UHGV virus genome: UHGV-0191815
Reading direction: 5' to 3' (one strand)
Origin: a virus
Length of the DNA stretch: 53,795 nt
Shown here piece after piece: positions 1,369 through 48,677 of this stretch. The notes under the pieces were generated by a model. It was not told where the DNA came from. It did no database searches and worked only from the letters and a program-made list of their open reading frames with translations. Both the position numbers and the translations under genes were made by a program. Numbering within the stretch: the stretch's first letter is position 1; every line of letters begins with the position of its first letter.

Positions 1369-1395
1369 AACCCCGCTTCGCGCGGGGTTTTCTTT
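1369..1395. terminator. Bidirectional intrinsic terminator between the J-like gene and the convergent lipoprotein gene
   Basis: GC stem ccccgc/gcgggg (1371-1376, 1382-1387) with an A-run upstream and a T-run downstream. Confidence 0.55.
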
Positions 1396-1643
1396 TAGTA
1401 GTTAGCTACACAGTTCGACGGGCTACCGATGCGGCGCATGTTGTGATCGAGTTCATGACACCATTGCCCAGTATACGGCAGTTTTTCAGTGTCATAGACA
1501 AGATGACCGCTTCCATCATATACAACATCTTGTGGAATCACTCCGCTATTCGGCAGGTTATGCAATGCAGCCTCTTTGTCAACAGCACAGCCAGTAAGAG
1601 ATACAGCCGCAGCAAACAAAACCACTTTGAACACGTTTTTCAT
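1395..1643 (-). CDS. Small lipoprotein (82 aa); possibly a Cor-like superinfection-exclusion protein
   Basis: N-terminus MKNVFKVVLFAAAVSLTGC has a signal peptide and lipobox (LTG|C); it sits just after the receptor-binding tail genes on the opposite strand, the position Cor takes in FhuA-dependent phages. Confidence 0.55.
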   Translation of the reverse strand: MKNVFKVVLFAAAVSLTGCAVDKEAALHNLPNSGVIPQDVVYDGSGHLVYDTEKLPYTGQWCHELDHNMRRIGSPSNCVANY

Positions 1644-1820
1644 TTTTGAATCCTCATTCTTGTTTGCTCATCCGGTTCATCCGGTGGCTTAAATATCCGA
1701 CAAAACCACATTTCGTATATTGACATAAATCAACAAATACATTTTGTGTAAGCAGAAAATGCAACATAGATCACAAAATGGTAGAATTATTCCGTTAATT
1801 AACATAATGGAGTCATTGCG

Positions 1821-4917: not shown

Positions 4918-6117
4918 ATGCTTACAGATACCAAATTACGAAACATTCACGGCAAGCCATACGACGGCCCGGAAGAAGTACCGGACGCTGGCGGATTGTC
5001 TGCCAGGATAAGCCCGCGCGGAGTTATATCTTTCCAGTATCGCTACCGATTCAACGGCAAGCCTCGACGGATGAAGATTGGCACATACGGAGAAATAACA
5101 CTCAAAGAAGCGCGGGCGGCGGTGGCGGAGCATAAGGAAGTGCTAAACTCAGGCCGAGATCCATCGGTAGCAAAAAGAATGCACCTTTCCCGCGTTACGA
5201 CACGGGCAACGGTTGAGGATATTGTAAGGGAGTACATGGAATCGCCGCAGGCAAGGAACATGGTCAATTATAAGCAGGTTGAGGCCATGCTAGATAAGCA
5301 CGTCATAAAACCATACGGTAGCTATATAGTCGATGATATGGACGCTATGATGTGGGAGGGGGTTTTTAGAAAGGTAGCCAGCGGTGGCGCACCAGTTCAG
5401 GCAGGTATAGTTCTCAACAGAATGAAGGCCGTAATAAAATACGCCATTCGCCGCCGCCGCGTGGATCGTGACGATATATCATTGCTGTGCGTTAAAGACG
5501 TTGGCAAAAAACCAGCGCAAGGCAAGCGAGTTTTGTCAATACAGGAGATCCACCGCCTAATCGGCCTTATAGACAGTTCAAAAATGGCGCGGCTGAATCA
5601 GATATTGATGAAGCTGATTATATTTACCGGGTGCAGGACAAGCGAACTGACAAACGCAAGGCGCGAGCATTTCGATCTTGATAGCTGCGTGTGGACGGTT
5701 CCTGGTGCATTGAGTAAGAACAGGAATGAGTTTAAGCGCGGTTTATCGGGCGTTAGCGTGGCTTTATTGCGTGAGGCTATGGATCTGCATAGCTTTAATT
5801 TTGTCTTCGTTCCTGTGCTTTCTGGAAGGGATGAGGCGGTGGATAGAAGTGTACCAAAAACAGCAGCTAGGGATTTAATGATGAGGATGGGCGGCGAGCC
5901 GTGGTCATGTCACGATCTACGCCGCACCGTGAGGACAAACCTTTCAGCGCTTGGCGTTGCGCCTCACGTCGCGGAAAAGGTTTTGGGGCACAAGCTGGCG
6001 GGAATGTTGGCTATATACGATCAGTATGACTATGTGAGGGAACAAATAGAGGCGATGAATAAGCTGGCTGATTATTACATGAAGCCCATTGACTTACAAA
6101 ATGAAATAACATCCTGA
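4918..6117 (+). CDS. int: Tyrosine integrase, P4-like family
   Basis: N-terminus MLTDTKLRNIHGKPYDGPEEVPDAGGLSARISPRGVISFQYRYRFNGKPRRMKIGTYGEITLKEARAAV matches the P4-type integrase N-terminal domain; C-terminal catalytic region has HDLRRT and Y; the ORF-track start at 4849 is an upstream extension. Confidence 0.85.
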   Translation: MLTDTKLRNIHGKPYDGPEEVPDAGGLSARISPRGVISFQYRYRFNGKPRRMKIGTYGEITLKEARAAVAEHKEVLNSGRDPSVAKRMHLSRVTTRATVEDIVREYMESPQARNMVNYKQVEAMLDKHVIKPYGSYIVDDMDAMMWEGVFRKVASGGAPVQAGIVLNRMKAVIKYAIRRRRVDRDDISLLCVKDVGKKPAQGKRVLSIQEIHRLIGLIDSSKMARLNQILMKLIIFTGCRTSELTNARREHFDLDSCVWTVPGALSKNRNEFKRGLSGVSVALLREAMDLHSFNFVFVPVLSGRDEAVDRSVPKTAARDLMMRMGGEPWSCHDLRRTVRTNLSALGVAPHVAEKVLGHKLAGMLAIYDQYDYVREQIEAMNKLADYYMKPIDLQNEITS

Positions 6118-10029: not shown

Positions 10030-11148
10030 TTACAAAATGGAAAATTCAGGGTAATAAACAAATCGCCCGATTTCACCATGATCCGGGCTGTAAATTATTA
10101 CCGCCGCCAGGCGACGCGACCTCCAGCCTCCATTAGTCGAATACGCATCCTTGCCAGCTAACGTGCCGTGGTGCTCAACAATTCCTAGTGACGTTTCAAT
10201 GACTGTTTGATGGTGCAGATGCCCAGTGTGAGCGTAAACAGCAACCGACTTCCCGAAATCTTCGCGCCAGTCAGCTACGCAAGCAGACAATAAATTTTCC
10301 GGTTTTTTGATAGTGTGCCCGTGGTGGTAAGCAAGGAATGTTTTCCCGTACTGCGTGTGGTGTACGATAGTAGGTGACACATCAACCGTCACGCGCGGTT
10401 CATCTTCGTAAAAAGCAGCCAGCGCCGCACGCAGCCAAATCATACCAGACTGGTCATGATTCCCTGATAACACCTGGATTTCCACATCCTTATGATTTAG
10501 CAACATCTTTCCGACCGCCCGCCGGACAGACCGGATCGCCACATAAACAAGTTTTGCGTAGCGCGAATCGCAATCAAGAACGTGATTGCTTGATGGCGTC
10601 ACTGGTAACAATCCGTCAGTGTGAAGCAGGTCGCCACCGAGAAGTAAGACCGCTTTTTCACTCATAGGAGCAGCGCCAACAGCATAATCAAAGAAGTCAT
10701 TTAACACGCGTTCAGCGATCCCAGTGTCGTAGCTCTCGCCACATTCAGCTTTGTGAGCAAGTGCCCCGATGTGCAGGTCAAACACCGGATAAAGTGCCAG
10801 GCTTTTTTGAAAATCAATTTCAGGCACTGACACAGCCTCCGCGCGTGGTATTTCATTCGTGAAAGCGTCGCGGGCGGCTTGCATTAGCCGTTCCATTTCG
10901 TCGCTGTCACGGGCCGTTTTAATCCAGCGCATGACCGTATTGCCAGCATTATCGACAAGAACAGATTCACCAGTAACGCTAAAACCAGGAGCGCGGCGCG
11001 TGGATATTAAACCGCGTTTTGCTAGTTTTGCGCCCAGGCGTTCGACATTGCGTTTAGACATGCCATATTTTTCAGCGATCTGTTTATACGTTAAACCGTT
11101 TTGGTATTCAGCGATTAACTGCTCATCGCTGATTTTTCTTTGCGACAT
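10030..11148 (-). CDS. HTH domain fused to calcineurin-like metallophosphoesterase
   Basis: N-terminal HTH (LTYKQIAEKYGMSKRNVERL); phosphoesterase motifs DLHIG, GDLLHTDG, GNHD, HTGHLHH; start chosen at MSQRK with RBS ggagg. Confidence 0.65.
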   Translation of the reverse strand: MSQRKISDEQLIAEYQNGLTYKQIAEKYGMSKRNVERLGAKLAKRGLISTRRAPGFSVTGESVLVDNAGNTVMRWIKTARDSDEMERLMQAARDAFTNEIPRAEAVSVPEIDFQKSLALYPVFDLHIGALAHKAECGESYDTGIAERVLNDFFDYAVGAAPMSEKAVLLLGGDLLHTDGLLPVTPSSNHVLDCDSRYAKLVYVAIRSVRRAVGKMLLNHKDVEIQVLSGNHDQSGMIWLRAALAAFYEDEPRVTVDVSPTIVHHTQYGKTFLAYHHGHTIKKPENLLSACVADWREDFGKSVAVYAHTGHLHHQTVIETSLGIVEHHGTLAGKDAYSTNGGWRSRRLAAVIIYSPDHGEIGRFVYYPEFSIL

Positions 11149-13603: not shown

Positions 13604-13909
13604 TGTGTTTTCTCCTATGGTTAAAATGAACGCGCTGGCGGGCATCCCATTATCATTAGATAGCAGTGATTGACCGCTGAACAGATCCCGCCGTTGCGTG
13701 ATATTTGTTTTTCGCATTGCAGCGACACCTGGTTTTTAAAGAGCTTTCAAGGTATGTGCCATTTGTGCTTTCCATTATCTTTTTTCTTGCATCCTTGCAA
13801 CTATGGCCTTACCTTGTCAGCAAGTTTACAGAATGTTGTTAATAGATCAAGGATTGAAAAATACATTTTGTGACTTGCATCAAAAATTTTTAGGTTATAG
13901 GGTAGCGAT
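13604..13909. promoter_or_regulatory. Divergent immunity-region control region (candidate operators and promoters for the repressor gene and the minus-strand early operon)
   Basis: About 300 bp non-coding between divergent HTH genes; contains atacattttgtgact (13861-13875), the palindromes ttgca-tcct-tgcaa and cttg-tcag-caag, and the nut-like element. Confidence 0.5.
13713..13750 (-). promoter_or_regulatory. nut-like element on the minus-strand transcript (boxA-like GCTCTTTAAAAA + hairpin CGCTGCAATGCG)
   Basis: Reverse complement reads agCTCTTTAAAAAccaggtgtCGCTGCAATGCG; near-identical to the plus-strand element at 22441-22474. Confidence 0.45.
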
Positions 13910-14557
13910 ATGAAAACAAAATGGTATGACTTGGCAAAACAACTCATGCGGGCGCAAGGCATGAGCCAGGATTCATTGGCTGATCTTATGGGGATAACCA
14001 AAGGTGGCCTTTCTCACTGGTTGAACGGTCGCCGTGAGCCGAATCTTGAAGATATTACGCGGATCATGCGGGCGCTTGGGCGTCGGCAATTCACTGTTAC
14101 TCATGATGGTATGGTCATTGATGATTCTGTTTCTAACACGTTGCCGGGAGCGCCACCGCGTGATTTAGGTAGTTACCCGGTTGTTGACTGGAAGGACGCA
14201 GCAAACAATATGGAAGACATACGCCGATCAACATTACCACACGTTACGACTAGCGTTATTTGTTCAGATGATAGTTACTGGCTGGTTGCTAAAGGTGAAT
14301 CAATGAACGCGCCGCAAGGGTTAAGCATCCCGGCGGGTACTATGATACTTGTTGACCCGCACGCGCCAGCTATTGATGGCAAACTGGTTATAGCCCAACT
14401 GGAGGAAGGGCAGACACCGACGTTTAAACAGTTGATTACTGATGGAGGCAGAAAACTTTTGCGTTCACTTAATCCGTTGTATCCTCCGATCCCTATGAAT
14501 CCAGAATCAAAAATCATTGGCGTGGTTGTTGATGCGAAGATCGTAAACCTGCCATAA
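13910..14557 (+). CDS. CI-like prophage repressor (HTH_XRE N-terminal domain + LexA-like S24 peptidase C-terminal domain)
   Basis: HTH (SQDSLADLMGITKGGLSHWLNGRR); C-terminal S24-type region (...LVAKGESMNAPQGLSIPAGTMILVD...KLVIAQLEEGQTPTFKQL) with Ser and Lys catalytic context. Confidence 0.85.
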   Translation: MKTKWYDLAKQLMRAQGMSQDSLADLMGITKGGLSHWLNGRREPNLEDITRIMRALGRRQFTVTHDGMVIDDSVSNTLPGAPPRDLGSYPVVDWKDAANNMEDIRRSTLPHVTTSVICSDDSYWLVAKGESMNAPQGLSIPAGTMILVDPHAPAIDGKLVIAQLEEGQTPTFKQLITDGGRKLLRSLNPLYPPIPMNPESKIIGVVVDAKIVNLP

Positions 14558-14587: not shown

Positions 14588-14679
14588 GCCATAAAAACGC
14601 CAAAACGTAAACAGAAAACCGTGTTTATTGTTTAAATATCAATGGCTTATAAATTTTATAAAAAAGTATACAAAATGTG

Positions 14680-14708
14680 TTGACTGGTGTTTTTACGTGG
14701 CGTATATT
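14680..14708 (+). promoter_or_regulatory. Sigma70-type promoter for the plus-strand early operon (PL-like), with an operator-like sequence abutting the -35
   Basis: -35 TTGACT (14680-14685), 17-bp spacer, -10 TATATT (14703-14708); gTATACAAAATGTG lies at 14666-14679. Confidence 0.6.
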
Positions 14709-22344: not shown

Positions 22345-22366
22345 AATTTACAAAATGGCGTCATTG

Positions 22367-22382
22367 TGTGATTTGTGTCACA
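22367..22382. promoter_or_regulatory. Perfect palindrome TGTGA-tttgtg-TCACA (CRP-consensus-like, or a phage operator)
   Basis: Read directly; lies just upstream of a candidate promoter. Confidence 0.4.
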
Positions 22383-22398: not shown

Positions 22399-22427
22399 CT
22401 TGTTTACGTGTATCCATTTTGTATACT
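22399..22427 (+). promoter_or_regulatory. Candidate internal promoter (-35 cttgtt, -10 TATACT)
   Basis: -10 TATACT at 22422-22427 with a 17-bp spacer; overlaps ccattttgtatac, a copy of the recurring motif. Confidence 0.35.
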
Positions 22428-22440
22428 GCAAACAAAATAA

Positions 22441-22474
22441 ACGCTCTTTAAAAATCCGGTGGCGCTGCAATGCG
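22441..22474 (+). promoter_or_regulatory. nut-like element: boxA CGCTCTTTAAAAA + hairpin CGCTGCAATGCG
   Basis: boxA matches lambda nut boxA (CGCTCTTA) closely; the whole element is near-identical to the minus-strand copy at 13713-13750. Confidence 0.45.
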
Positions 22475-24816: not shown

Positions 24817-25078
24817 ATTAAAAGAACATATTTACCGCCAGTTGATTAACGAGCTTGCGGATACAGCCCGATATTACGCAGGAACACAACAGCTACGCGG
24901 GCGGCTATCTTCGGTTGTTAACCGCTATATTGATGCCGGATGTCATCGCAAAGGTGAAATCACGATGGACGAGGCCATCAAGCGCCGGACGGCTGAATGG
25001 TCAGTGAGTAACACCGGATTAACCGGATACATTGAAGGCTATAACGACTGTTTACAGGATCATAGCGATGGCAAGTAA
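24806..25078 (+). CDS. Hypothetical protein (90 aa)
   Basis: ORF in coupled series. Confidence 0.45.
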   Translation: MKPKLKEHIYRQLINELADTARYYAGTQQLRGRLSSVVNRYIDAGCHRKGEITMDEAIKRRTAEWSVSNTGLTGYIEGYNDCLQDHSDGK

Positions 25079-42189: not shown

Positions 42190-42870
42190 ATGATTCACGT
42201 TCGAACAGGACAGTTTGCGGTTGTGGTTGATGGCAGACGTTACGAATTTAATCCCTGCTTTGCTGCAATGGCTAAGATCGGCAGTGACAGGGAACTGGTC
42301 GAATACTTCGCAACGGTTCACGGTGGCAGATACCCACGGCGTATGCCGATGGATACAGACCTCCGCAATCGCATTCTGGCGCGTTGTTATGGTGAACTGG
42401 TGCAAACGTCCATACACATATTGAAATGTTGCTCAGAATGCGAAATAGGCCCGTTATTGGGCGAATGCAGCTTTACTCCTTCTGGTAAGTTGAGACTGAA
42501 ACCTGGATTGATGCCCACCAGCGATGTTATCACGCTGGCGCAACACTGCATGTTCCACGGTTTAATTGGTGACGGTCCAGAAGAAGACACTGGAGAAAAC
42601 CAGGATGGCGAGTACAAGCCCACATTCGACATCCTTGAGTATGTTTATTCTGCCGTTGCTCACCTGGGATTGTCTGAGTCTGAAGCGTGGGGCATGACAA
42701 TGACCGGATATAGGGCCGCTGTACGCGCTAAAACGCCACCAGACGAAAGAAACGAGAAAGGTAAACCAAACGTTCATATAAATAAACGTGATTATGATGA
42801 GCAAATGGGAGCGGCTAAAAGGGTGCTGGAATTAATGAAAAAACGCGAGCAAGAAAAAGCCCGGAATTAA
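42190..42870 (+). CDS. Putative tail assembly chaperone (G/GT-like position)
   Basis: Position between the tail tube gene and the tape measure gene; no frameshift evident. Confidence 0.35.
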   Translation: MIHVRTGQFAVVVDGRRYEFNPCFAAMAKIGSDRELVEYFATVHGGRYPRRMPMDTDLRNRILARCYGELVQTSIHILKCCSECEIGPLLGECSFTPSGKLRLKPGLMPTSDVITLAQHCMFHGLIGDGPEEDTGENQDGEYKPTFDILEYVYSAVAHLGLSESEAWGMTMTGYRAAVRAKTPPDERNEKGKPNVHINKRDYDEQMGAAKRVLELMKKREQEKARN

Positions 42871-42884
42871 CCGGGCCTTTATCT

Positions 42885-43187
42885 TTATTTGTATGCTGCG
42901 AATCGGCATCTTGCTTCATCAAGGTCATGAACATCGTACACGTTATCGTAAATGTAAGTTGCTACCTGTGCTTTCTGTACGTCAGTTGCGTTCGGGAACT
43001 CCATGCTTACGAAAGTCACTGCATCAACGTAGTGTTTGAACATCTTTTTGTTAACGCACAGCGCGTAAATCAATACAGCAGGCCAGCAAATCAGCGCACC
43101 AAAGAATGCCAGGAGCATATTCAGATGTTTTTTCTGAGCTACAACCATAGTTGCGACGAAGCCGATGAAGCAAATTACCAGTTCCAT
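42885..43187 (-). CDS. Membrane protein (100 aa) in reverse-oriented cassette 1
   Basis: MELVICFIGFVATMVVAQKKHLNMLLAFFGALICWPAVLIYALCV (two TM segments) then a soluble tail. Confidence 0.5.
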   Translation of the reverse strand: MELVICFIGFVATMVVAQKKHLNMLLAFFGALICWPAVLIYALCVNKKMFKHYVDAVTFVSMEFPNATDVQKAQVATYIYDNVYDVHDLDEARCRFAAYK

Positions 43188-43197
43188 GATACACCTC

Positions 43198-43305
43198 TCA
43201 ATTGCGTTTATCTTCTGTTGTCATTGCCAGCACCAGCACAGCCATCACATTAAATGCTAACCATGCTGTAATATATACATCTATAACCGTTTTGATTGCG
43301 TCCAT
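43198..43305 (-). CDS. 35-aa TM peptide (cassette 1)
   Basis: MDAIKTVIDVYITAWLAFNVMAVLVLAMTTEDKRN. Confidence 0.3.
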   Translation of the reverse strand: MDAIKTVIDVYITAWLAFNVMAVLVLAMTTEDKRN

Positions 43306-43318
43306 TCACCCGCCCCGC

Positions 43319-43405
43319 TTATTTCTTGTTTTTAAGTGCTTTCAGCATTTCTTCGATAAAGTCGGCATAATGCTCATGCTCGTTGGGTCGGTAGTAGCCT
43401 TTCAT
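43319..43405 (-). CDS. 28-aa peptide (cassette 1)
   Basis: MKGYYRPNEHEHYADFIEEMLKALKNKK; RBS gaggataag. Confidence 0.3.
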   Translation of the reverse strand: MKGYYRPNEHEHYADFIEEMLKALKNKK

Positions 43406-43574
43406 TTTCTTATCCTCTTTTGCTTCCTCCGGTTCATCCGGTCTTTTAAATCCTTTTTCTGTTTCCTGTTAGTTTTAGGGGTTTTCGCCTCCCTCGTTCC
43501 TTCGGTTGGCTGTGCCTCAAGTCTTAATCCCTTATTCCTTCGACCTTCTTTTCTCTCTCTTCCTTTGACTTCTT

Positions 43575-43614
43575 TATACAAAATGTATACGTTGAAGTGA
43601 AGACATTTTGTATA
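43575..43614. promoter_or_regulatory. Pair of inverted palindromic motifs (TATACAAAATGTATAC and ACATTTTGTATA) flanking gttgaagtgaag
   Basis: Read directly; about 40 bp upstream of the tape measure start and upstream of minus-strand cassette 1. Confidence 0.5.
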
Positions 43615-43654
43615 AAATAGGGATCTGGATCACGCTTTTTAGTGAGGTAAAATC

Positions 43655-46533: not shown

Positions 46534-46788
46534 TCATTTATGCGCACCTTTTACGCCACAGTGGCGGTTGTATTCCAGATGGTCAATAATTAACCACATC
46601 TTTAAATCTTCGCTGAATAACCGCCAATCGGGGTTGATGTCAAATTTATAGCCGTAGCCATCGCGTAATTTTTTGGGGTTGGCCTCTTTTTTCAGGAAAG
46701 AATTTAATAAAGCCTTGCCTTTCTTGATGATCCGTTCCTGGGCGTTTTTCTGTGCTTTCAGGTTTTTGCTAATCATTACCAATTTCAT
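46534..46788 (-). CDS. 84-aa basic protein (cassette 2)
   Basis: MKLVMISKNLKAQKNAQERIIKKGKALLNSFLKKEANPKKLRDGYGYKFDINPDWRLFSEDLKMWLIIDHLEYNRHCGVKGAHK; RBS aaaggggga. Confidence 0.5.
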   Translation of the reverse strand: MKLVMISKNLKAQKNAQERIIKKGKALLNSFLKKEANPKKLRDGYGYKFDINPDWRLFSEDLKMWLIIDHLEYNRHCGVKGAHK

Positions 46789-46826: not shown

Positions 46827-46884
46827 CTGTATACAATATGTAATTGCCGAAGTGAAGCCATTTTGAAAACTAGCTATAATCATT
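46827..46884. promoter_or_regulatory. Palindromic motif ctgTATACAATATGTAa plus candidate plus-strand promoter for the tail tip operon (-35 GTGAAG, -10 TATAAT)
   Basis: -10 TATAAT at 46875-46880 with a 17-bp spacer; motif 46830-46842; gaagtgaag box shared with the site at 43591-43600. Confidence 0.45.
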
Positions 46885-46955
46885 GTGACGAAGTTCTCAT
46901 TTTTCGCGTATAAGCGCGTAAAGATGTATGCAATATGTAACTTATAGGGGGAATC

Positions 46956-47772: not shown

Positions 47773-48021
47773 CTATAAGTTATCGCGCAGATAATTAACT
47801 CCTTTATCGGTGACGAACGAATGATTGACCTGGTTTTCGTCCGTCATGATGATGAATAGCTTTTCCTGCAGGTATTTCGCTTTTGGGTACAGCGTTAAAC
47901 AGACCTGGTACAGTATCCCGCGCTCAATCAGCAAATCAATAAATTCGTGCTCATGATAACCGATTAGGCGGGCGGCCTGTTTCAACGTGTACACATAATC
48001 GCCGTGATTGCGCCGCCCCAT
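47773..48021 (-). CDS. 82-aa protein with possible HTH (cassette 3)
   Basis: MGRRNHGDYVYTLKQAARLIGYHEHEFIDLLIERGILYQV... Confidence 0.5.
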   Translation of the reverse strand: MGRRNHGDYVYTLKQAARLIGYHEHEFIDLLIERGILYQVCLTLYPKAKYLQEKLFIIMTDENQVNHSFVTDKGVNYLRDNL

Positions 48022-48592: not shown

Positions 48593-48610
48593 TACAATAT
48601 ACATATTGTA
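48593..48610. promoter_or_regulatory. Perfect 8-bp inverted repeat TACAATAT-ac-ATATTGTA upstream of cassette 3 and of gene L
   Basis: Read directly; a candidate -35 TTGATC for the minus-strand cassette lies nearby. Confidence 0.5.
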
Positions 48611-48677
48611 AAAAACGCGATCAACCGTTCTGGTATGGTTTAGTGTGATGGCGATCACAAAATGACAAGGTGATAAA

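Follow-up and report, generated by a model that had tools for sequence, protein, structure and literature searches.

A group-specific leader module with a small conserved CCGG hairpin or dyad precedes two accessory operons of mEpimmI-group coliphages

Two distant accessory operons in the genome of a temperate coliphage begin with homologous leader and ribosome-binding sequences, within which a small hairpin or dyad, made of two CCGG tetramers 5 nt apart, is conserved. The stretch of DNA analyzed here, referred to as the window, is 53,795 bp long and holds both copies. This group-specific leader module is real and was previously undescribed; the genome paper of the phage group makes no mention of the shared leader (PMC11893012), and Rfam 15 gave no match at the gathering threshold over the whole window on both strands. 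As for its role, the reading we tentatively prefer from sequence comparison, to which we would give slightly less than an even chance, is that the tetramers pair in the mRNA to give a small stem-loop, which borders the ribosome-binding site on its 5′ side and tunes the translation or decay of the accessory genes.

The phage and its two accessory loci

The window is 90-93% identical to Escherichia phages mEp554, mEp013, mEp044, and mEp010, with mEp021 and mEp515 as more distant kin, and represents a temperate coliphage of the mEpimmI (mEp021) group. The mEpimmI group, to which all six of these phages belong, comprises Nus-dependent, non-lambdoid temperate coliphages (PMC11893012). The genes of the two accessory loci are as follows.

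1395..1643, minus strand: type-C Lpp superinfection-exclusion lipoprotein gene (82 aa; lipobox LTGC; phrog_12984 "lipoprotein," E 2.8e-27)
43319..43405, minus strand: orf28 (MKGYYRPNEHEHYADFIEEMLKALKNKK), 28 aa, head gene of a small cassette
43198-43305, minus strand: 35-aa ORF of the orf28 cassette, hydrophobic product
42885-43187, minus strand: 100-aa ORF of the orf28 cassette, hydrophobic product

The lipoprotein gene lies between the J gene, which ends at 1363, and the tail-fiber gene, which starts at 1821, and exclusion of LamB-dependent phages, lambda included, by type-C Lpp has been shown experimentally (PMC11893012). Every Lpp homologue in IMG/VR belonged to the phage group except for one chimera in another phage (L226), in which the N-terminus and the leader are both different. 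In two relatives from IMG/VR (L134 and L138), the lipoprotein start is ATA, not ATG (...tttaaaaATAaaaaac...), and the leader hairpin is kept; the ATA start suggests that lpp is inactivated or alternatively initiated in these phages.

The orf28 cassette sits between a 241-aa rightward tail-chaperone-like gene and the tape-measure gene, and the part of it downstream of orf28 (42885..43305) differs between relatives. With a dN/dS of about 0.11 over 17 protein variants, orf28 is a conserved protein-coding gene that is absent from most annotations: it is annotated in mEp515 only, is missing from the mEp021 and MagusPhagus records, and 20 of 21 E. coli prophage copies have no annotated feature over its leader and first three codons. 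Its product had no Pfam or PHROG match, and no homologue was confirmed in 185,579 species genomes. Two further leftward cassette genes lie between the tape-measure gene and the downstream tail genes, one with a ParE-like toxin domain (46534-46788, minus strand; PF24732, E 1.6e-11) and one with a KilAC/ANT domain (47773-48021, minus strand; PF03374, E 7e-7).

Occurrence and position of the shared sequence

An earlier note on this DNA, made from the letters alone, had reported CCGGATGAACCGGA(T/G)GA in the leaders of both genes. We confirmed this sequence at 1668-1684 and 43425-43441 on the minus strand and nowhere else in the window; both ORFs exist.

1668..1684, minus strand: 17-mer copy 1, CCGGATGAACCGGATGA (...aagccaCCGGATGAACCGGATGAgcaaacaagaatgaggattcaaaaATG), with hairpin core CCGG-ATGAA-CCGG at 1672-1684
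43425..43441, minus strand: 17-mer copy 2, CCGGATGAACCGGAGGA (...aaagaCCGGATGAACCGGAGGAagcaaaagaggataagaaaATG), with hairpin core at 43429-43441

The two copies had also been said to sit at the same distance from the start codon. The distances are indeed similar, yet they differ by 5 nt: relative to the lipoprotein ATG at 1643 and the orf28 ATG at 43405, the 17-mer occupies -41..-25 and -36..-20, respectively, so that copy 1 ends 24 nt and copy 2 ends 19 nt upstream of its own ATG. With up to two mismatches allowed, CCGGATGAACCGGAKGA matched the window twice (0.01 expected; 0 of 100 shuffles gave two matches). When IMG/VR was scanned for exact matches, 79 turned up in 77 loci, 8 of which are related phages, each with the match at one of these two positions; the remaining matches are in unrelated contigs, many of them within apparent Pro-Asp-Glu coding repeats. 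Short-query BLAST of 50,697 phage records found neither leader outside the phage group, the orf28 leader was present in 21 of 5,426 complete E. coli genomes at one copy each, and a degenerate leader pattern had no enterobacterial match in 185,579 species-representative genomes, only chance matches in unrelated phyla. Unbiased occurrence elsewhere, which would speak against a special element, was looked for directly, and the phage matches fell in this group only and at the two positions. From these scans of the window, IMG/VR, phage records, E. coli, and species genomes, we conclude that the 17-mer is real, non-random, and position-specific.

A common leader module separable from promoter and cargo

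The likeness of the two leaders extends well beyond the 17-mer and takes in the whole translation-initiation region.

1638..1694, minus strand: leader/translation-initiation module, lipoprotein copy (ATTTAAG...GAGGAT...ATGAAA), with Shine-Dalgarno GAGGA at 1651-1655
43400..43451, minus strand: leader/translation-initiation module, orf28 copy, from local alignment, with Shine-Dalgarno GAGGA at 43413-43417

Local alignment of the two leaders over 52-57 nt, from ATTTAA to ATGAAA, scored 45 against a background of 18.5 ± 2.5 (z about 10), and none of 500 dinucleotide shuffles reached that score. The homology runs from about -50 to +6 or +11, Shine-Dalgarno sequence included, and in relatives continues through ATGAAAAACGT, the first three to four codons, giving a module of about 55 nt in the window and up to about 70 nt in relatives. 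Of the two explanations offered in the earlier note, a common origin is well supported by this extended homology, including the Shine-Dalgarno sequence and, in relatives, the first codons, and we regard the two leaders as copies descended from one module; a common regulatory or translational-control element in both leaders is plausible. The orf28 leader of the window also carries an extra purine-rich segment of ~93 nt (about 43452-43545, minus strand), which is common to L088, L119, and L120 and missing from most relatives; GGATT(T)AA(AA)GAC repeats on both sides of it indicate an insertion or duplication within the leader.

The regions that flank the modules contain the following predicted signals.

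43573..43601, minus strand: predicted sigma-70 promoter of the orf28 cassette (TTCACT 43596-43601, 17 nt, TATAAA 43573-43578)
1708..1780, minus strand: region upstream of the lipoprotein leader, with TAYACRAAATGT motifs (1708-1719, 1739-1750) and CRP-like TGTGAtctatgTTGCA (1760-1775)
1369..1389, strand unassigned: predicted hairpin of a bidirectional intrinsic terminator, with the stop codons of J (1363) and of the lipoprotein gene (1395) on either side
42855..42880, strand unassigned: inverted repeat AAAAGCCCGG/CCGGGCCTTT that has T-runs on both strands and probably acts as a bidirectional terminator where the orf28 cassette ends

The predicted orf28 promoter reads TTCACT/TTTACT...TATAAA/TATAAG in relatives and is paralogous to the promoter of cassette 2 at 46828-46856; it went uncalled by a consensus scanner because of the A at position 6 of its -10 element. 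Its position upstream would place the hairpin inside the transcript, at about +35 to +47 in most relatives and, owing to the extra ~93-nt segment, much farther downstream in the window. For the lipoprotein gene, several weak promoter candidates were found and none was convincing; from one of them, TATACG-16-GATATT, the mRNA would start at the base of the hairpin. The terminator at 42855-42880 itself holds GCCCGG-AATTAA-CCGGGC, another CCGG...CCGG palindrome with a 6-nt spacer.

Comparison of the orf28 promoter region with that of cassette 2 (46828-46900, leftward) gave a score of 48 against 17.6 ± 2.4, and cassette 2 lacks the CCGG element despite its paralogous promoter. In 13 relatives without orf28 and its leader, the same promoter is joined straight to a lipoprotein gene. 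At the fiber-side site, other cargo genes replace type-C lpp with the junction just 3′ of ...gatttatgtcaat, and their leaders are unrelated. It follows from these three arrangements that promoter, leader/ribosome-binding module, and cargo are separable units, and the separability of the module from both promoters and cargo points to its spread by recombination. The element was found with two cargo genes only, orf28 and type-C lpp, and in this phage group only; since other cargo at these sites has unrelated leaders, it is not general to insertions there.

Conservation in relatives and predicted folding

The comparative set comprised 87 loci anchored on tape-measure or fiber N-termini, 80 of them from the phage group, to which GenBank phages and E. 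coli prophages were added. Both CCGG tetramers are almost invariant in about 45 relatives, and the 5-nt spacer varies freely, with nine forms observed (ATGAA, ATTAA, ATAAA, ACAAA, GTTAA, GTGAA, ATTGA, ATGTC, and ATAAG). The earlier description of the conserved part thus needs changing: relatives keep CCGG-N5-CCGG, but not the CCGGATGA direct repeat; a 9-mer direct repeat (CCGGATGAA twice), considered as a pair of iteron-like sites, was rejected on the same ground. The exact identity of the 17-mers in the window, including the perfect 13 nt, is due in part to the ATGAA spacer in both copies. In other genomes, the spacers at a genome's two sites differ and do not track each other, so there is no sign of ongoing gene conversion. 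It is also this freely changing spacer that leaves the direct repeat, and the upstream ORF and MalT readings considered below, without conservation.

In the orf28 context, we counted 0.12 parsimony steps per site in the stems, 2.6 in the loop, 1.74 in the upstream leader, 0.61 in the downstream leader, and 1.10 at third codon positions; the corresponding values in the lipoprotein context were 0.25 for stems versus 0.6 for the loop, where divergence is too low to show selection. These rates bear on the possibility that there is no discrete element. Recombination would then have copied an efficient purine-rich initiation region, the CCGG pair would merely have been carried along as a passenger, and the 5-mer would vary only because constraint is weakest, or mutation most frequent, at that place. 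Conservation (0.61 steps per site) extends over the entire stretch that begins with the first CCGG and reaches the ATG, the stems (0.12) are only marginally better, the phages are closely related, and, as described below, there is no covariation and longer-context folds are not significant, all of which speak for a passenger. However, the stems show 1 step over 8 sites where ~9 to 14 would be expected at third-codon or upstream-leader rates, and the tetramers persist in the most divergent lineage (the L099 group), in which the upstream flank and the loop have been wholly replaced; we consider this explanation unlikely without being negligible.

Short folds contained one hairpin, a 4-bp CCGG stem with a pentaloop, at -5.5 kcal/mol for the orf28 copy and at -9.3 kcal/mol for the lipoprotein copy, in which CA/UG pairs lengthen the stem. 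For an alignment of 27 distinct leaders, RNAalifold returned the same 4 pairs as the sole consensus structure (-5.4 kcal/mol), and 97% of the stem cells in this alignment are paired. Across the 27 sequences, each of the 4 pairs changes at most on one side; with no covariation, it is conservation that carries the case for the structure. Single disruptive and uncompensated stem changes occur in three lineages (ACGG; CCTG in the first tetramer; CCTG in the second). In mEp021, a single case outside the 27-leader alignment, the sequence is UCGG...CCGG, which allows a G-U pair on the sense strand of the cassette and leaves a C-A mismatch on the opposite strand; this G-U-compatible change is suggestive support for RNA pairing. 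Apart from the predicted hairpin, the leader has no stable local structure: the remainder is purine-rich and unpaired, with the Shine-Dalgarno sequence unsequestered. The core of the hairpin (-41..-29 in the lipoprotein leader, -36..-24 in the orf28 leader) falls at the upstream edge of the 30S ribosome footprint. Folds in longer context were no more stable than shuffles (z of -0.11, +0.34, and -0.26). A 9-bp long-range pairing, AGCAAACAA/TTGTTTGCT, around the lipoprotein start region was discarded, as it is not kept in relatives, and a search of the phage for an antisense or sRNA partner found no complementary stretch of at least 13 nt, with 11-12-mers at chance level.

Because CCGG is palindromic, the conservation would be explained just as well by a bipartite site in duplex DNA. 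The two CCGG half-sites, 9 bp apart center to center, would then be bound by a dimeric transcription factor of the host or the phage, which would sit between promoter and start codon as a roadblock or repressor. It is the tetramer sequence itself that is invariant, not just its pairing, and the spacer is free, as is typical of bipartite protein sites. CRP-like sites and a recurring dyad also make it seem that regulation is dense upstream of both operons (see below). CCGG-N5-CCGG is also over-represented in the window (4 observed versus 0.42 expected), but the two occurrences other than ours, CCGGACAGACCGG at 10522 and CCGGATTAACCGG at 25014, lie within ORFs and have unrelated flanks, and were rejected as further copies. 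The TCGG of mEp021, tolerated as G-U on the sense RNA, alters a DNA half-site; a compensatory change in a 4-bp stem is not expected at such divergence; and we know of no E. coli or phage factor with CCGG-N5-CCGG specificity. On balance, we treat a DNA operator as a minor, still serious possibility. CCGG as a depleted restriction or methylation target was dismissed, since the window has 163 occurrences versus 155 expected.

In the mRNA stem-loop reading that we prefer, the 17-mer is the best-preserved core of a leader and ribosome-binding module carried in two copies by mEpimmI-group prophages, and both operons would be transcribed through it from upstream promoters. The two CCGG tetramers, 5 nt apart, would pair in vivo as a 4-bp G+C stem with a pentaloop, and the hairpin would act in the mRNA, either as a small structural element or as a recognition site for a trans-acting factor, to tune the translation or decay of the accessory genes. 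RNase E is expected to scan past a bare internal stem-loop (PMC9943677), so that a simple stabilizing mechanism is unlikely unless a protein binds; a barrier to RNase E scanning was accordingly set aside as unlikely for a bare orthogonal stem-loop (PMC9943677). At the RNA level, a binding site or structural spacer may be likelier than a nuclease block, unless the hairpin is 5′-terminal in the lipoprotein mRNA. A more ambitious proposal, in which the CCGG-N5-CCGG hairpin is a dedicated translational operator whose stem and flanks are read by one trans factor that co-regulates both distant operons, for superinfection exclusion or lysogenic conversion, as a small post-transcriptional prophage regulon, strikes us as rather improbable; the factor would be a host RNA-binding protein or a phage product, conceivably even the orf28 peptide.

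Other readings of the leader

We strongly doubt that the leaders are controlled by CsrA, whose dimers would bind the repeated GGA(U) motifs and repress translation. The lipoprotein leader contains four GGAU motifs, the orf28 leader GGAU, GGAU, GGAGGA, and GGAU; both leaders have at least two GGA motifs, of which the last is the Shine-Dalgarno sequence, as looked for in CsrA targets. At 14-22 nt, the distance of the GGA motifs from the Shine-Dalgarno GGA would be suitable for a CsrA dimer to bridge, and CGGAUGAA resembles characterized RsmE/CsrA targets. Nevertheless, the ~7 GGA seen versus ~4 expected from base composition, a rough estimate, are near composition level; each GGA is preceded by a conserved CC, which puts C in place of the preferred A at -2 (ANGGA); both G residues are paired in the predicted hairpin instead of being presented in a loop; and GGA is changed to GGG in several relatives.

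A second reading takes the conserved sequence as MalT boxes, with two core hexamers GGA(T/G)GA in direct repeat tying the exclusion lipoprotein to the maltose regulon. The MalT box is GGGGA(T/G)GAGG with core hexamer GGA(T/G)GA (PMC7567727); both window copies read GGATGA-ACC-GGA(T/G)GA and are the only two tandem pairs among 50 such hexamers in the window, and type-C Lpp excludes LamB-dependent phages, among them lambda (PMC11893012). In addition, the 10-nt ATTTAAGCCA (1685-1694, minus strand) is common to the malK promoter-proximal box region of E. coli K-12 (L253, 1202-1211); the likeness is to the sequence right after the proximal MalT box and is probably due to chance (roughly p 0.08, post hoc). 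The relatives largely refute this reading, which we consider highly unlikely: the first hexamer becomes GGATTA, GGATAA, GGACAA, GGGTTA, GGATTG, or GGATGT, and about half of the lipoprotein leaders have GGACGA or GGATTA as the second. Where GGGGAKGAGG has GG on either side, the leaders have CC (5′) and AC, GC, or AG (3′); the spacing of the hexamers is 9 bp versus 10 and 13 in the malK distal boxes (L253); and the element lies 19-24 nt from the ATG, a misfit for a box centered near -37.5 and for the layout of the mal promoters, in which a proximal box overlaps -35 and distal boxes form direct repeats. Nor are hexamers enriched, with 50 seen versus roughly 52 estimated from the window length, and the best decamer matches in the window are at 5827 and 40569, away from the leaders. 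What the leaders share with MalT boxes, namely two perfect core hexamers in direct repeat and one cargo that acts on LamB, a porin regulated by MalT, amounts to a resemblance and does not make them MalT boxes; the comparison with malE-malK fails on flanks, spacing, gene-relative position, and, decisively, conservation in relatives.

In both window copies, the spacer ATG opens a short ORF with ATGAACCGG in frame, which could be read as a leader peptide (MNRMSKQE* before the lipoprotein gene, MNRRKQKRIRK* before the cassette), and the cassette ORF ends at ATGA, overlapping the orf28 start codon. No Shine-Dalgarno sequence precedes the spacer ATG, however, and most relatives have ATT, ATA, ACA, or GTT in its place; as most relatives lack the ATG, we rejected the upstream ORF and give a leader peptide next to no chance.

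It is also most improbable that the leaders are nut-like sites, in which a boxA and boxB hairpin would be read by the N-like antiterminator Gp17. As in lambda-type nut sites, a small hairpin whose pentaloop is A-rich is preceded, at a distance of 3-5 nt, by a stretch that includes TTTAA, a superficial boxA-boxB likeness. The nut sites of the mEpimmI group are located in the early operons (PMC11893012), which counts against the leaders, as these lie outside early operons. The candidate nut sites of this phage consist of boxA-like GCTCTTTAAAAA at 13733 (minus), 14751 (plus), and 22443 (plus) followed by putative boxB CGCTGCAATGCG, and differ in sequence from the leaders, GGATATTTAAG and GGATTTAAAAG, which lack both the CTCTT core of the boxA-like sequence and the putative boxB; we rejected the reading on this comparison. 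Moreover, antiterminators read boxB loops, whereas no part of the element varies more than its loop (2.6 steps per site).

Relation to known systems

Stem-loops in E. coli 5′ untranslated regions, such as the ompA 5′ hairpins, modulate mRNA stability or translation. The predicted hairpin resembles them in being short and G+C and in lying 5′ of the Shine-Dalgarno sequence within a leader that is single-stranded elsewhere; it differs in having a 4-bp stem and in being probably internal (about +35 to +47 in most relatives) instead of 5′-terminal.

Phage morons, such as lambda bor and lom or the exclusion lipoprotein genes of the cor type, are autonomous accessory units in late operons. Both units described here likewise run leftward inside the rightward tail-gene cluster; each has a candidate regulatory region upstream and ends in a predicted bidirectional terminator hairpin, and the cargo includes an experimentally tested exclusion lipoprotein (PMC11893012). 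Unlike morons, the two distant units share a homologous leader/ribosome-binding module while their promoters and cargo are different.

If the hairpin is functional, it would offer a handle on the levels of the exclusion lipoprotein and the neighboring cassette in mEp021-type prophages, which are reportedly as common as lambdoid phages in a human-feces collection, and would provide a clear case of a leader/ribosome-binding module moving between accessory operons apart from promoter and cargo. The element is small and limited to one phage group, and does not overturn current understanding.

Other possible regulatory sequences near the cassettes

Two further kinds of sequence recur around the accessory cassettes and elsewhere in the window.

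43575-43589, 43600-43614, 46830-46844, 48598-48612, 22347-22358, 22411-22425, 14667-14681, 14692-14706, 13825-13836, 13863-13874, 1708-1719, and 1736-1750: dyad sites
48644-48659, 22367-22382, 46884-46899, 13869-13884, 1760-1775, 43619-43634, and others: CRP-like sites

The first is a 15-bp dyad, TATACA-N3-TGTATA (half-site TAYACAAAATGT), which recurs at predicted promoters. In three leftward cassette promoters it overlaps the -10 element; at a PR-like promoter (TTGACT-17-TATATT) it adjoins the -35 and spans the -10. It also flanks a PL-like promoter beside a CI-like repressor gene (13910-14557), and precedes the boxA-like sequence at 22443, which is probably nutR2. The dyad looks like an operator to which the phage repressor or Cro would bind. 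In that case immunity control would extend to the accessory cassettes, a surprising arrangement for exclusion genes that a lysogen expresses.

The second is the CRP-like site (TGTGA-N6-TCACA), of which the window contains 11 with at most one mismatch versus 1.66 expected; none of 100 shuffles reached 11. The accessory cassettes may be cAMP-CRP dependent, and the sequence suggests that they combine CRP-like sites with a dyad shared with candidate immunity-region promoters. A perfect CRP-like site is centered ~61.5 bp upstream of the predicted start of cassette 3 (TTGATC-17-TATATT, 48596-48624), another lies ~70.5 bp upstream of the cassette-2 start, and weaker sites, outside the 11, precede orf28 and lpp.
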